Assembly (NCBI GenBank): GCA_964411565.1
Contig: CAYPLB010000004.1
Coordinates: 32,500 to 96,499 of the forward strand
DNA: 64,000 nt
DNA from: Candidatus Woesearchaeota archaeon
Lineage (GTDB): Archaea; Nanobdellota; Nanobdellia; SCGC-AAA011-G17; GW2011-AR17
Direction: 5' to 3'
Positions 10,103 to 26,057 of this stretch are shown piece after piece. Under the pieces are notes generated by a model. The model was not told the DNA's origin. It saw only the letters and a program-made list of their open reading frames with translations, and did no database searches. The position numbers were made by a program, and so were the translations under genes. The stretch's first letter is position 1. Each line of letters begins with the position of its first letter.

Positions 10103-11884
10103 GTGACTTCTAAGAAAATTGAGGAAGCGAAGATTAAAAGAATTAAAAATAATTCTAAAGACCTTAAGAATATTCTAAATTTAGAAAATAAATTAAGCCT
10201 AAATTTACATGCAATGACAGTTCTTAATGAAAGATATCTTAAAAGAAATAGTAAAGGAGAAGTTGTAGAAAATCCTGAACAAATGTTTAGAAGAGTAGCG
10301 AAGTATGTAGCAAAAGCTGAAAAGAAAGATAAGAAAAAATGGGAAAATGAATTCTTTGAAGTTATGAAGAATTTAGAATTTTTGCCAAATACACCATGTT
10401 TAACAAATGCAGGAACAACTAGAAAACAACTATGTGCTTGTTATGTTTTAGATCTACCTGACTCAATAGAAGATATATTTGAAACATTGAAAAAATCAGC
10501 TTTAATATTTCAGAGTGGAGGAGGAGTAGGATATTCTTTCTCAAAAATTAGACCTGAAGGAAGTTTGATAAAAAGTACAAATAGAGAAGCCTCAGGCCCA
10601 GTTTCATTTATGCATATTTTTGATAAAGCTGCAGAGACTATGAAAAAAGGTGGAATCAGAAGAGCAGCTATGATGGGAGTTTTAAATATTTCTCATTTAG
10701 ATATCTTAGAATTTATTTGTGCAAAAGAAAAAAATAAATTGAAAAATTTTAATATTTCAGTCGCTATTACCGATGATTTTATGAAAAAAGTAATTCATGG
10801 ACAAAATTATTGGTTAAAAGATGAAAAAGGAAATAGAGTGAAGAAATTTAGTTCAAGAGAAGTTTTTGATTTTATTTGTGCAAACTCTTGGGAAAATGGT
10901 GAACCAGGAGTTTTATTTATTGATGAGATTAATAGAAAACATTGTCTTAAGAAAATAAATAAGATTACAGCTATAAATCCTTGTGGAGAAGTCCCACTCC
11001 TTGAAAGAGAATCTTGTTGTTTAGGTTCAGTTAATCTTTCTAAGACTACAAAAAATGGAAAAGTGAATTGGGTAAAATTAGCAAAGTCTGTAAAAATAGG
11101 AGTTAGGTTCTTAGATAATGTTGTATCAGTAAATAAATATCCAACAAAAGAAATAGAATTAATGTGTCTAACAAATAGAAAAATTGGTTTAGGTGTAATG
11201 GGTTGGGCAGATATGTTAATTGAATTAGGAATATCATATGATTCTAAAGAAGCAGTAAAATTAGCTGATAGTGTAATGAAGTTTGTTAAAAAAACAGCAA
11301 TAGAAGAGTCTGAGAAATTAGCTAGAGAAAAAGGAGCATTTCCAAATTATAAAAGAAGTAGTATTAAGAAAAAAAGGAGGAATGCAAGTTTGTTAGCAAT
11401 TGCACCTACAGGTAGTATTAGTATTATTGCAGGTTGTTCATCAGGAATTGAACCTTTGTTTGCTGTAGCTTATATGAGAGAAATATTAAATGGAATGAAA
11501 CTATTGGAAATAAATAAAACATTTGAAGAAATAGCAAGATTTAATGGATTCTATAAAAAAGGTATGATGAAAAATATTGTAAAGAAAGGAACATTAAAAG
11601 GAATACTTAGTGTTCCAAAACCAGTAAAGAAATTATTTGCAACATCATTGGAGATTCCATTAGAGAGACATATAGAGATGCAGGCAGCTTTTCAAAAACA
11701 TGTTGACAATGCAGTATCAAAAACAATAAACTTACCAAATAAGGCAACTATAGGTGATGTAAAGAGAGCATATATGTTGGCTTGGAAGAATAAATGTAAA
11801 GGAATTACAGTTTATAGATATGGTAGTAGAGAAAAACAAGTTTTGTATTTTGGTCAAAAATATTGTAAGAATTGTAAAAATTAA
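10103..11884 (+). CDS. nrdJ: Class II (adenosylcobalamin-dependent) ribonucleotide reductase
   Basis: ERYL, PNTP..NAG, CACY, GGGVG, NPCGE, CLGSVNL, IAPTGSIS, SSGIEP, terminal CxxC; GTG start after SD GAGGTGA. Confidence 0.9.
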   Translation: MTSKKIEEAKIKRIKNNSKDLKNILNLENKLSLNLHAMTVLNERYLKRNSKGEVVENPEQMFRRVAKYVAKAEKKDKKKWENEFFEVMKNLEFLPNTPCLTNAGTTRKQLCACYVLDLPDSIEDIFETLKKSALIFQSGGGVGYSFSKIRPEGSLIKSTNREASGPVSFMHIFDKAAETMKKGGIRRAAMMGVLNISHLDILEFICAKEKNKLKNFNISVAITDDFMKKVIHGQNYWLKDEKGNRVKKFSSREVFDFICANSWENGEPGVLFIDEINRKHCLKKINKITAINPCGEVPLLERESCCLGSVNLSKTTKNGKVNWVKLAKSVKIGVRFLDNVVSVNKYPTKEIELMCLTNRKIGLGVMGWADMLIELGISYDSKEAVKLADSVMKFVKKTAIEESEKLAREKGAFPNYKRSSIKKKRRNASLLAIAPTGSISIIAGCSSGIEPLFAVAYMREILNGMKLLEINKTFEEIARFNGFYKKGMMKNIVKKGTLKGILSVPKPVKKLFATSLEIPLERHIEMQAAFQKHVDNAVSKTINLPNKATIGDVKRAYMLAWKNKCKGITVYRYGSREKQVLYFGQKYCKNCKN

Positions 11885-21388: not shown

Positions 21389-21436
21389 ATACGAGATATG
21401 GTAGAGTGAAGAGAGGAGATATACTATATCTTGTTG
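21389..21436 (+). promoter_or_regulatory. Tandem NrdR boxes upstream of nrdR-nrdD-nrdG
   Basis: ATACTATATCTTGTTG (21421-21436) and weaker ATACGAGATATGGTAG (21389-21404) resemble acaCwAtATaTwGtgt; 32 bp apart, just downstream of TATA-like TTTATAAA. Confidence 0.7.
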
Positions 21437-21446
21437 TTACTGAAAA

Positions 21447-21893
21447 ATGAAATGTCCATACTGCGCAAGCCCAGAAATCAAAGTTCTAGACAAAAGGAAT
21501 ACTGAAGAAGGGAAATCAATAAGAAGGCGAAGAGAGTGTTTGGGCTGTAACAAAAGATTTACAACATATGAAAGAGTTGAAGAATTTCCTGTTTATGTTA
21601 TAAAAAGAGATGGAAGAAAAGAACCCTTTTGTAGAGTTAAACTCAAAGAAGGTTTTGTAAGAGCCTTCGAAAAAAGACCAGTGACAATGGAAGTAATAGA
21701 TAATATTGTTGATGGATTACAGAGAAAAGTAAGAAACTATAAAGTAAATGAAATTGAAAGTAAAGTGTTGGGGAAATGGGTCTTAAGTTTGTTGAAAAAA
21801 ACTGATAAAATTGCTTATATCAGGTATGCTTCAATACACAAAGATATTGGAGATATACAAGAACTTGAAGCCGAAATACAAAAAATAATTTAG
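21447..21893 (+). CDS. nrdR: Transcriptional repressor NrdR
   Basis: MKCPYC...IRRRRECLGCNKRFTTYE Zn ribbon, ATP cone (VIKRDGRKEPF), AYIRYAS. Confidence 0.95.
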   Translation: MKCPYCASPEIKVLDKRNTEEGKSIRRRRECLGCNKRFTTYERVEEFPVYVIKRDGRKEPFCRVKLKEGFVRAFEKRPVTMEVIDNIVDGLQRKVRNYKVNEIESKVLGKWVLSLLKKTDKIAYIRYASIHKDIGDIQELEAEIQKII

Positions 21894-21903
21894 GGGAGTA
21901 AAA

Positions 21904-24900
21904 ATGGTATCACATGTAAAAAAAAGAGATGGAAGTATTATTCTTTTTAACAAAGAAAGAATAGCAGAAGCAATATTCAGTGCTATGAAAGCAACTGGAG
22001 TAGGCAATAAAGAAATGGCAAAAGAACTTGCACAGAAAGTTGCAAGAATAGTAGAAGAAAGAAATCCTTATCAAATTCCTTCAGTCGAAGATATTCAAGA
22101 TTGTATTGAAGATGTGTTAATAAAAGAAGGTGAACAAGGAATAGCAAAAGCCTTTATTATTTATAGAGAAAATAGAAGAAGAGAAAGAGAAAGTAAGAAA
22201 GTTCTTCTAGATGTTGAAGGTACTATGAAAGAATATCTTGATCAAATTGATTGGAGAGTAAATGAAAATAGTAATGTTGGTTTTTCTCTTGGTGGTTTGA
22301 TTTTATATATATCTGGAAAAATTACAGCTAATTATTGGTTGAATAATATTTATCCTGCTGAAATAAAAAATGCACATGTTAATGGAGATTTTCACTTACA
22401 TGATTTGAGTATGTTTAGCGGATATTCATTTTATAGAAATGAAGTTATTGTAGTTAGAGATAAGAAAACAAAAAGTCCATTAGTATTAAGTTTTGAACAA
22501 TTATATAAGTTAACTCAATCTAAAGTTGATCATGAAAATGGGTTTGAGATTAAGTATACAAATGAATATGAGATATTTGATGAAAAAGGTTGGACAGATC
22601 TTAAAAGAGTTCTTAGACATAAAACAACAAAACCATTAATTTCATTGAACACTTTTAATGGGAAAAACTTAGTTGTGACAAATGATCATCCTTTTATTAC
22701 ATTAGAAGATGAAAAACAAATTATTTCCTGTCCTGGATGTGAAGGAAATAATGTTATAAAGAATAGAACAAATAAAATTGGAAAAGATTATTTTAAGTGT
22801 AAATCTTGTGAACAAAGGTTTGGTTTAGATAAAGAAACTTTGCCAAATTTGAGTAAAAGAAAAGAGATAAAAGCAGAGGAAGTAAAATTAACTAACTATG
22901 CATTAACTCCTGCATTTGAAATTGAACAAAATTTTAAAGATAATTTAAGTGTAGAAGATGGATGGTTTGTAGGACTTTTTATTGCTGAAGGATATTTTAA
23001 AGATAAAAATTTAGTTTTTGAAATGTCAGATAGTAGAGAATTTAGAAAGTTAGTGAATTATTTAGTTTATTCTGAAGTAGATTTTAACTTGAATAGTAAT
23101 AAAAGTAATTCAGGAATGCAAATGATTCAAGAAGGGAATAATATCTTGTACATAAAAACTATTTCTTTATCTGAAGAGTTACAAGAGATAATATCACAAA
23201 TAAGACCTTATGCATATAATAAAAATTTGCCAATGAATATGTTAAGTATTAAGTCAGAAGTTATCGGAGCAATGATCTCAGGAGTAATTGACGGAGATGG
23301 AGTAATTAGAAATGATGACCCATGGGTTTCAAGAGCTAATTTAAGGATGACTTCAAAAACTCTTTTAAGTCAAATTCAATTTTGGTTAGAATTAGAAGGA
23401 ATAAATTCTTCTTTGTTAACTATTGATGGATATGGAGAAAGAGAATATAAAGGACTAATAATAAAACCAAGTAAACAACTATATTCATTAACATTCTATA
23501 TTCCTGAAAGAAAAAAGAAATTATTTACAGAATGTTTGAAGATAGATAGTAGTTTTAAATATTCTAAAAGAGATTCATATAAACTTAAATCTCATTCACA
23601 TTTTAGAAAGATTGAAGCTATCGAAAATGATGATGAATATGTCTATGATATTACAACTGAAACAAGAACTTTTAATTGTAATGGAATGTTAGCTCATAAT
23701 TGTGCGGGCTGGTCATTAAGACAACTCTTAGAAGAAGGTTTTGGAGGAGTTTATGGAAAATTACAAACAAAACAACCAAAACATTTTGATACAGTAATTG
23801 GACAAATGGTTAACTTCTTAGGTACTATGCAGAATGAATGGGCAGGAGCACAAGCTTTGTCATCTGTTGATACTTATCTTGCTCCTTATGTAAGAGTAGA
23901 TAATATGACTTACAAACAAGTTAAACAACAAATGCAAAGACTGCTTTTTAACATAGCTACACCTAGTAGATGGGGAACACAAACACCATTTATTAATTTT
24001 ACATTTGATTGGACAGTTCCTGAAGATATGAGAGAAGAAAAAGTAATAATTGCTGGACAAAGACAAGAATCAAAATATAAAGATTATCAAAAAGAAATGG
24101 ATATGATCAATAGAGCTTTTATGGAATGTATGATGGAAGGAGATGCTGATGGAAGAATATTTACATTCCCAATTCCTACATATAACATTACAAAAGATTT
24201 TGATTGGGATAGTGAAAATTCAAACATGTTATTTGAAATGACATCAAAATATGGTATCCCTTATTTCCAAAATTTTGTTAATAGTGAATTGAAACCGACA
24301 GATGTAAGAAGTATGTGTTGTAGATTGCAATTAGATGTTAGAGAACTGAGAAATAAAACTGGAGGATTGTTTGGTTCAGGAGAAAATACAGGATCTATTG
24401 GAGTTGTTACAATTAATCTTCCAAGATTAGGAGAAGTAAGCAAAAGTAGAGAAGAATTCTTTAGAAGATTAGGAATACTTATGGATATGGGGAAAAATTC
24501 TTTAGAAATTAAAAGAAAAGTTGTTACAAGATATATGGAATATGGATTGTTGCCATTCACAAAAAGATATCTAGAAAACTTAGACCACCATTTTTCAACA
24601 ATAGGATTAATTGGAATGAATGAATGTTGTTTGAATTTCTTGAAAAAAGATATGATTGAAAAAGAAGGAAGAGATTTTGCAATTGAAGTCTTAGATTTTA
24701 TGAGATCAAAATTACAACAATACCAAGAAGAAACTGGACATATTTACAATTTAGAAGCTACCCCAGGAGAAGGTACTAGTTATAGATTAGCTAGAATCGA
24801 TAAGATGAAATATCCAAATATTATTACAGCTGGAGATGAAGAACCATATTATACAAATAGTTCACAACTTCCAGTAAATGCAACAGATGATATTTTTGAA

Positions 24901-25164
24901 GCATTGGATAGCCAAGAAGAATTACAATGTAAGTATACTGGTGGAACAGTATTTCATTGTTTTATTGGAGAAAAAATAGATGATGTAGAAGCGTGTAAAA
25001 AATTAGTTAAGAGGATTGCACATACATATAGAATCCCTTACTATACAATAACTCCAACATTTAGTATTTGTCCAGAACATGGATACATTGCAGGAGAACA
25101 TCATGAATGTCCTTATGAAGCAGTTGTTAAAGTAAAAGGAGGTGAAAAAAATGAGCAAATGTGA
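21904..25164 (+). CDS. nrdD: Class III anaerobic ribonucleotide reductase large chain (ATP cone, intein-containing, lacks glycyl-radical C-terminus)
   Basis: VKKRDG ATP cone, HLHDL..GY|CAGWSL, QNEWAGAQA, RSMCCRL, GSIGVVTINL, EATPGE, YTGGT, TPTFSICPEHG. Confidence 0.93.
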   Translation: MVSHVKKRDGSIILFNKERIAEAIFSAMKATGVGNKEMAKELAQKVARIVEERNPYQIPSVEDIQDCIEDVLIKEGEQGIAKAFIIYRENRRRERESKKVLLDVEGTMKEYLDQIDWRVNENSNVGFSLGGLILYISGKITANYWLNNIYPAEIKNAHVNGDFHLHDLSMFSGYSFYRNEVIVVRDKKTKSPLVLSFEQLYKLTQSKVDHENGFEIKYTNEYEIFDEKGWTDLKRVLRHKTTKPLISLNTFNGKNLVVTNDHPFITLEDEKQIISCPGCEGNNVIKNRTNKIGKDYFKCKSCEQRFGLDKETLPNLSKRKEIKAEEVKLTNYALTPAFEIEQNFKDNLSVEDGWFVGLFIAEGYFKDKNLVFEMSDSREFRKLVNYLVYSEVDFNLNSNKSNSGMQMIQEGNNILYIKTISLSEELQEIISQIRPYAYNKNLPMNMLSIKSEVIGAMISGVIDGDGVIRNDDPWVSRANLRMTSKTLLSQIQFWLELEGINSSLLTIDGYGEREYKGLIIKPSKQLYSLTFYIPERKKKLFTECLKIDSSFKYSKRDSYKLKSHSHFRKIEAIENDDEYVYDITTETRTFNCNGMLAHNCAGWSLRQLLEEGFGGVYGKLQTKQPKHFDTVIGQMVNFLGTMQNEWAGAQALSSVDTYLAPYVRVDNMTYKQVKQQMQRLLFNIATPSRWGTQTPFINFTFDWTVPEDMREEKVIIAGQRQESKYKDYQKEMDMINRAFMECMMEGDADGRIFTFPIPTYNITKDFDWDSENSNMLFEMTSKYGIPYFQNFVNSELKPTDVRSMCCRLQLDVRELRNKTGGLFGSGENTGSIGVVTINLPRLGEVSKSREEFFRRLGILMDMGKNSLEIKRKVVTRYMEYGLLPFTKRYLENLDHHFSTIGLIGMNECCLNFLKKDMIEKEGRDFAIEVLDFMRSKLQQYQEETGHIYNLEATPGEGTSYRLARIDKMKYPNIITAGDEEPYYTNSSQLPVNATDDIFEALDSQEELQCKYTGGTVFHCFIGEKIDDVEACKKLVKRIAHTYRIPYYTITPTFSICPEHGYIAGEHHECPYEAVVKVKGGEKNEQM
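22426..23700 (+). mobile_element. Intein (425 aa) with LAGLIDADG endonuclease in NrdD
   Basis: Begins S (SFYRNEV), block B VTNDHPF, LAGLIDADG-like WFVGLFIAEG and MISGVIDGDG, ends VYDITT...GMLAHN, then extein Cys. Confidence 0.92.
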
Positions 25165-25375
25165 AAAAAAGTGTGAAGTATATAGTAGAGTAGTTGGATA
25201 CCATAGACCTGTTGAACATTGGAACAAAGGGAAAAAGGCAGAGTTTTTCGATAGAAAGACCTTTTGTATGAAAGCAAGTCTAGAAAGTAAATATGGAAGA
25301 ACTCTGGAGGCTTTCAATAGTAAAAAGGAAGTCTCTGAAACAGAGATTTTGGAAGTGAAAAATGTTGAAGTTTAA
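25151..25375 (+). CDS. Stand-alone NrdD glycyl-radical C-terminal domain
   Basis: CEVYSRVVGYHRPVEHWNKGKKAEF..R; own SD GGAGGTGA; overlaps nrdD stop. Confidence 0.85.
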   Translation: MSKCEKKCEVYSRVVGYHRPVEHWNKGKKAEFFDRKTFCMKASLESKYGRTLEAFNSKKEVSETEILEVKNVEV

Positions 25376-26057
25376 TGGGATAATTAGAAGTTCTTTGATA
25401 GATTATCCTGGACAGATTACTTCTGTTCTTTTTCTTTCTAAATGTAATTTTAGATGTCCTTTTTGCCATAATCCAGAATTAGCTTTGAATTCTAATGAAG
25501 GAGAAAATCTTGATGAAGAATTAATTCTAAAATTTTTAGATGATAGAAAAGGAAAATTAGATGCTGTTACAATAACAGGAGGAGAACCAACATTAAGTGA
25601 AGGACTTTTAGAGTTTATTATGAAAGTCAAAGAAAAAGGTTTTTTAGTAAAAATAGATAGTAATGGAACAAGACCGAAAATACTTAAAAAAATGATTCCT
25701 TATGTTGATTTTATTGCAATGGATATAAAAAGTTCATTAGATAAATATGAAGAAGCTTGTGGAGTTGTTTGTAATAAAGAAAAAATTAAAGAAAGTGTAG
25801 AATTGATTAAAAATTCTGGAAAAGATTATGAGTTTAGAACAACTTTAGTTAGAAGTTTAACTAATGATGAAGATTTAAAAGAAATATGTGAATGGTTGAA
25901 AGGAAGTAAAAAATATGTATTACAACAATTTGAAAAAAGAAATCCAATATTAAAAGAAGAATTAAAAAATGAAGCAATATATACTCCTGAGGAATTAAAT
26001 ATATTTAAAGAAATTTGTTCGGAATATTTTGAAGTAGTTGAAATTAGAGGATATTAG
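25362..26057 (+). CDS. nrdG: Anaerobic RNR activating enzyme (radical SAM)
   Basis: SLIDYPG, CNFRCPFCHN, ITGGEPT, DSNG, YEFRTT. Confidence 0.92.
   Translation: MLKFNGIIRSSLIDYPGQITSVLFLSKCNFRCPFCHNPELALNSNEGENLDEELILKFLDDRKGKLDAVTITGGEPTLSEGLLEFIMKVKEKGFLVKIDSNGTRPKILKKMIPYVDFIAMDIKSSLDKYEEACGVVCNKEKIKESVELIKNSGKDYEFRTTLVRSLTNDEDLKEICEWLKGSKKYVLQQFEKRNPILKEELKNEAIYTPEELNIFKEICSEYFEVVEIRGY

Follow-up and report, generated by a model that had tools for sequence, protein, structure and literature searches.

Is the nrdD locus of this marine DPANN archaeon (source genome of about 1.0 Mb in 19 contigs) a damaged gene, or does it encode a class III ribonucleotide reductase (RNR) whose glycyl radical is carried by a second polypeptide? 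In the 64,000-nucleotide stretch of DNA that was analyzed, referred to as the window in subsequent discussion, the RNR gene and the motif expected to hold its radical glycine are in different reading frames. The original prediction was that the radical carrier is a separate subunit, with programmed frameshifting or a sequencing error at a run of seven A's as alternatives. To our knowledge, all characterized class III RNRs have the radical glycine on the catalytic chain. The comparisons described here indicate that the locus very probably encodes a genuine two-chain class III RNR in which the radical glycine is on a separately translated chain of 74 residues.

The large nrdD ORF was expected to end without the radical glycine, and it does: its C-terminus is ...TPTFSICPEHGYIAGEHHECPYEAVVKVKGGEKNEQM followed by the stop, and no RVxGY motif is present anywhere in its 1,086 residues. 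It matches positions 52 to 525 of the 562 in the Pfam NRDD profile PF13597 (E 4e-172; 574 bits, cut-off 26.2) and NCBIfam NF006126 (1043 bits, cut-off 548). These matches place the ATP-cone and the catalytic barrel on the large chain, and a motif-based assignment places the finger-loop cysteine, the thiyl radical site, there as well (SMCCRLQL, aa 803 to 810 of the large ORF; MCCRL at aa 805). The body aligns with Thermotoga maritima NrdD (4COI) as far as residue 607.

The remainder of the enzyme is on the small ORF, which lies between nrdD and nrdG at the position, and in the +1 frame, that the original prediction had given for the motif YSRVVGY. The small ORF matches positions 526 to 562 of Pfam NRDD, with no other Pfam match at E up to 0.01, and NCBIfam NF006126 and TIGR02487 are divided between the large and small ORFs in the same way. 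Together the two ORFs make up exactly one NrdD. The translation of the small ORF starts with MSKCEKKCEVYSRVVGYHRPV... (over a longer stretch, MSKCEKKCEVYSRVVGYHRPVEHWNKGKKAEFFDRKTF...) and finishes with a 35-residue tail. The glycyl-radical loop is SRVVGY, with Gly16 encoded by the codon at 25196 to 25198. Other features of the small chain are Cys4, Cys8, WNKGKxxEF, and the clade-specific tail SLES...LEAFN. The small chain alone gave no match when phmmer was run against PDB sequences; a profile built from 11 small chains matches T. maritima NrdD, with residues 611 to 645 aligned. Similar proteins of 40 to 87 aa formed 20 clusters. Directly downstream is nrdG, whose product matches TIGR02495 NrdG2 (E 4e-60; 202 bits, cut-off 131).

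Features of the nrdD-nrdG locus, in window coordinates
Feature	Coordinates	Strand	Basis
nrdD large chain, 1086-aa precursor	21904..25164	+	profile matches, motif, alignment to 4COI
425-aa Ser-initiated LAGLIDADG intein in nrdD, aa 175-599, inserted between GY and CAGWSL	22426..23700	+	Pfam Intein_splicing + LAGLIDADG_3
Large-chain zinc-ribbon segment, C1056-x2-H1059-x9-C1069-P-Y-E	25069..25110	+	sequence motif
Shine-Dalgarno GGAGGTGA, within last nrdD codons, 5 nt 5' of small-gene ATG	25138..25145	+	
Small chain gene, 74 aa, frame +1 to nrdD, start ATG	25151..25375	+	profile matches, alignment, dN/dS, similar-protein clusters
nrdD stop TGA, from small-chain Cys4-Glu5 codons (TGT GAA) in the other frame	25162..25164	+	
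nrdG activase, 231 aa, radical SAM, CNFRCPFC cluster motif	25362..26057	+	TIGR02495

The small gene has its own Shine-Dalgarno (SD) sequence, an 8-mer with just two copies over both strands of the window. An alternative upstream GTG at 25142 falls within the SD and is unlikely to be the start codon of the small gene. The small ORF overlaps nrdD by 14 nt at one end and nrdG by 14 nt at the other. Because the SD and ATG are inside the last nrdD codons, translation of the two chains, and then of nrdG, would be coupled within one operon.

The intein in nrdD, which carries an extra zinc ribbon, is a separate matter from the two-gene split, but it needs to be spliced out. Both congeneric genomes have an intein-less nrdD of 660 to 664 aa, and a gain or loss of the intein must therefore have occurred within the genus. 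The possibility of a split intein at the nrdD junction was rejected: the body tail past CPYE is just 14 residues long and no intein blocks match there.

Conservation of the split was one of the checks proposed for the two-chain prediction, and the split is conserved. In both sister species of the genus the split occupies the same position, with the junction GGAGGTGAGCGGAATGAGTAA, which contains no homopolymer. When 240 genomes of the order were searched with the small-chain profile, the radical motif was found in 50, in exactly one copy each. In 27 of these 50 genomes the open frame with the motif is no longer than 101 aa, and in the other 23 it is at least 270 aa long. The split genomes represent 10 families of the order and, within the window's family, at least seven genera. 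At all 26 split junctions that were inspected, a 4- to 8-nt piece of GGAGGTGA is located 3 to 8 nt before the start codon (a piece of at least 6 nt in 22 of the 26). The start codon of the small gene is ATG at 20 of these junctions, TTG at 5, and GTG at 1, and nrdG is directly downstream in 24 of the 26 loci.

In a tree of NrdD bodies, the clade that includes the window contains seven split genes, which represent three genera, and its sister is a fused gene. Elsewhere split and fused genes interleave, and well-supported branches force at least six changes of label. Inteins in some rows may distort placement (for example, L011 groups with L043 on a long branch). Therefore, we claim several changes between the split and fused states but not a number of origins.

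Purifying selection acts on the small ORF. Over its first 56 codons, dN/dS between the window and its congeners is 0.03 to 0.04 (dS 1.2 to 1.6), and over the whole frame it is 0.11 to 0.12 (dS 0.7 to 0.8), no higher than the 0.10 to 0.26 found for nrdG within the genus (dS 0.57 to 0.76). For the nrdD body, dN/dS is 0.03 between the two congeners (dS 0.34); comparisons with the window's own copy gave 0.22 to 0.26, values inflated by the intein. The invariant residues of the small chain (C8, E9, R13, V15, G16, Y17, R19, P20, W24, N25, G27, K28, E31, and R35) are those conserved in fused NrdDs.

The position of the cut suggests how the two chains might be held together. In T. maritima NrdD the zinc motif, CxxxHx6CxxC, follows the final strand of the barrel and precedes the loop that bears Gly621 (PMC4493059). 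The same order is found in canonical NrdD, whereas in the window's split NrdD the chain break is inside the zinc ribbon. The nrdD body of the window has three zinc ligands and is missing the second Cys of knuckle 2, the fourth ligand. The small chain has the N-terminus MSK-C-EKK-C-EVY, and the fused sister gene reads C..H...C-TYEN-C-KNK-C-EVY over the same region. With the second zinc knuckle divided by the cut in the window, the fourth ligand is probably Cys4 of the small chain. Thus, to judge from these alignments, the zinc site of the window's enzyme is probably completed in trans, which would tether the two chains.

The zinc ligands covary across the 26 split loci, which are not phylogenetically independent. 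Positions were counted from the [CT]E[VR][YF] of the small chain. All 13 loci with a complete CxxC in the body are without a Cys at -4 in the small chain. Of the 12 loci whose body is missing the fourth Cys, 9 have a small-chain Cys at -4; the remaining 3 have CPxxH in the body and no small-chain Cys at -4. One further locus has CxC in the body and the Cys at -4. An 87-aa relative of the small chain, P0020, itself has a complete CxxC...CxxC ribbon (MSKCEKCGGEKIAVCPICGKPVEVY). The position of the break can thus vary among lineages, from upstream of the zinc ribbon to within it or beyond it.

The prediction of a separate radical-carrying subunit thus gains support from a split that is kept in the sister species and in more than half of the motif-bearing genomes of the order, from the SD and start codon at every junction inspected, and from the selection on the small gene. 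We infer that the two chains assemble into an active enzyme with a shared zinc site. Once its intein was removed, the large chain would supply the ATP-cone, the ten-stranded barrel, the finger-loop cysteine, and most of the zinc ribbon. The small chain, translated from what would be its own strong SD and ATG, would supply the loop with the radical Gly16, which would have to insert into the barrel. NrdG would place the radical on the small chain, and Cys4 would complete the zinc site and tie the two chains together. A search of the source genome found a single nrdD locus and no fused copy. Because the genome has no NrdD with a glycyl-radical domain of its own, the small chain would be a regular, obligate subunit rather than a spare. 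When the small chain was modeled in isolation by AlphaFold2 from an alignment of 20 sequences, no confident fold resulted (pLDDT 62, pTM 0.23); in this weak model, strands 9 to 12 and 17 to 20 form a hairpin around Gly16. A hairpin without a confident fold is what might be expected of a loop that folds only in the barrel.

One possible elaboration of the two-chain model, which we consider unlikely, is that the 74-residue chain is a replaceable radical cartridge, swapped after O2 cleavage at Gly16 while the barrel is reused. NrdG would charge the small chain on or off the barrel. Following cleavage by O2, only the small chain would be degraded and then remade from its strong SD, and the large barrel, already processed to remove its intein, would be kept. 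The interchain zinc site would be the latch in the window's lineage, and the many phage copies of the mini-protein that have no body would represent this cartridge, directed against enzymes of the host.

Programmed +1 ribosomal frameshifting, or transcriptional slippage with the loss of one A from A7, could also yield a single-chain NrdD from this locus. The two frames would be joined as ...KGGEK-MSKCEKKCEVYSRVVGY by a +1 slip of tRNA-Lys on AAA-A at 25145 to 25151 or by an A6 transcript. The SD would then be a frameshift stimulator, as in prfB, in which an SD-like element is upstream of the shift site, and the +1 offset is common to most relatives. However, the frame of the small gene relative to the body is +1 at 16 of the 26 junctions, +2 at 4, and 0 at 6, stops intervene, and the ORFs overlap by as much as 74 nt or are separated by as much as 33 nt. 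No single shift mechanism can serve all of these junctions. The varying offsets, overlaps, and gaps therefore argue against programmed frameshifting. Across the split junctions, no conserved slippery site of the prfB or dnaX type was found at a fixed distance from a stimulator. What is constant over the 26 loci is the 3- to 8-nt spacing between the SD and the start codon; the distance from the SD to the stop is not fixed.

The congener junctions have neither a homopolymer nor any other shift-prone site, and the body tail past the SD lacks conservation, with EKNEQM in the window and ERNE in a congener. A second A7 run is found at 25164 to 25170, close to the one at 25145 to 25151. Because there are 68 A-runs of at least 7 on the + strand of the window (28% GC), the A7 at the junction is unremarkable. 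In addition, an RNA contig shows the A7 unchanged. The shared +1 offset has a simpler cause: the invariant Cys-Glu codons of the small chain, TGT GAR, read xTG TGA in the body frame and thereby set the stop. In the other relatives with a +1 offset, the body stop arises likewise from the invariant Cys-Glu codons before VY or RY. Frameshifting, one of the two alternatives offered in the original prediction, is therefore disfavored, and we regard it as quite improbable.

It is still less probable that nrdD is decaying or dispensable and that the frameshift is a tolerated lesion, with dNTPs coming from another RNR. DPANN genomes are reduced, the NrdD motif is present in just 50 of the 240 genomes of the order, and a second RNR is encoded in the window (PF02867, class I/II-type, in a 600-aa open frame at about 10436 to 11815). 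Because of this second RNR, NrdD is not provably essential, and an argument from essentiality failed. However, the reading frames of the body, the small ORF, and nrdG are uninterrupted, and all three show purifying selection although synonymous divergence is saturating. The catalytic loop MCCRL is intact, as are the glycyl motif and the cluster motif of NrdG, and the split has been kept, always with an SD and a start codon, over the many genera and families listed above.

To check the accuracy of the junction sequence, positions 24900 to 25500 were compared with Logan contigs that derive from two marine studies, with eight DNA runs in all. Logan provides assembler contigs, from which rare length variants are dropped, and some of the runs may be the source of the metagenome-assembled genome itself. 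Six contigs from separate runs cross the junction with 0 differences and 0 gaps, and contigs of two runs break at or beside the A-runs (X6 at 25136 to 25156 and X7 at 25163 to 25166). No indel variant at the junction, and thus no indel restoring one ORF, was found among the assembler contigs of the eight DNA runs. One metatranscriptome contig of 164 nt (depth 3.6) covers 25123 to 25285 unchanged, with A7 kept. It is the sole metatranscriptome contig found over the 4.4-kb nrdD-nrdG stretch and covers only the start region of the small gene, which is too weak a basis for claims of higher expression, a separate transcript, or a separate promoter. Homopolymer runs are classic places for indel errors, and the contig breaks at the A-runs would fit such an error, but an indel that conceals a single ORF is scarcely conceivable given the clean junction-spanning contigs, the recurrence of the split in 26 other loci of quite different DNA, and the SD and ATG conserved at the junction. 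The comparative evidence outweighs the contig evidence in setting aside this second alternative.

By profile, the two-gene NrdD belongs to the same family as canonical single-chain NrdD with NrdG (T. maritima NrdD, 4COI and 4U3E; phage T4 NrdD, 1H78; NF006126 and TIGR02487). The canonical and split enzymes have in common the ATP-cone, the barrel, the finger-loop Cys, the RVxGY motif, and an adjacent NrdG2-type activase (PMC4493059). They differ in that the glycyl-radical loop of the split enzyme is on a separate polypeptide with its own ribosome-binding site. The two-gene NrdD of this DPANN archaeon is a variant of a known enzyme family. The variant is apparently undescribed in print; full-text searching of the literature found no description of a split NrdD.

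The original prediction likened the small chain to GrcA/YfiD of Escherichia coli, the free-standing partner of pyruvate formate-lyase (PFL). The likeness holds in that both are small, free-standing glycyl-radical-loop proteins, with GrcA activated by a radical SAM enzyme and docking into a large barrel (PMC13450708, PMC8683613). It does not extend to family or role. GrcA is in the PFL-type Gly_radical family, PF01228, whereas the small chain matches only NRDD, PF13597. GrcA serves as a backup for a full-length PFL with a radical domain of its own, whereas the NrdD large chain here has none and the small chain would be a regular part. A 2026 GRE review names formate lyases as the only GRE class with identified spare-part proteins. 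Another comparison is the split class II RNR NrdJa/NrdJb of Pseudomonas aeruginosa, in which the catalytic polypeptide is also encoded by two genes, with the C-terminal zinc-finger part on the second (PMC9669993). However, NrdJa/NrdJb is of the AdoCbl class and has no glycyl radical, its cut is at another position, and its second chain is much larger.

To these precedents the present case adds an order-wide tally of split and fused genes, a cut in the zinc ribbon with covarying ligands, and a cause for the common +1 frame. A conserved two-chain NrdD would mean that an RNR barrel can receive its glycyl loop from another polypeptide. Because the loop would be outside the barrel before assembly, the split NrdD may be a natural system in which to study how an activase gains access to a buried glycine. 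It would also allow one to ask whether an enzyme damaged by O2 can be restored through exchange of its 74-residue part. Annotation pipelines will probably call such nrdD genes frameshifted pseudogenes, and anaerobic dNTP synthesis may thus be undercounted in DPANN and other lineages with small genomes.

Several minor observations concern the surroundings and relatives of the locus. Directly upstream of nrdD, on the same strand at about 21389 to 21893 of the window, is an NrdR-like ORF (MKCPYC...CLGCNKRFTTYE, then an ATP-cone-like part), recognized by its sequence alone. A conserved tail, S[LVM]ES...LEAFN or similar, follows the canonical NrdD end (EFxxRxxF) in small chains and in fused relatives of the order. 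It is found at 25268 to 25372 of the window and in the relatives L004, L006, L009, L010, and L013, and it is absent from T. maritima NrdD.

The small-chain profile also matches viral DNA. Among the best 80 matching loci on IMG/VR viral contigs (L115 to L194), 21 encode a fused NrdD and 2 a split NrdD with an adjacent body. In another 48 of these 80 loci the motif is in a frame with fewer than 150 codons before it (for example, MAKCGRKTEVYSRVVGYFRPVANWNKGKKEEFKDRKTF), and the 2.5 kb flanking it on each side contain no detectable NrdD body. A Cys at -4, as in the window's type, is present in many of these 48 loci without a body.
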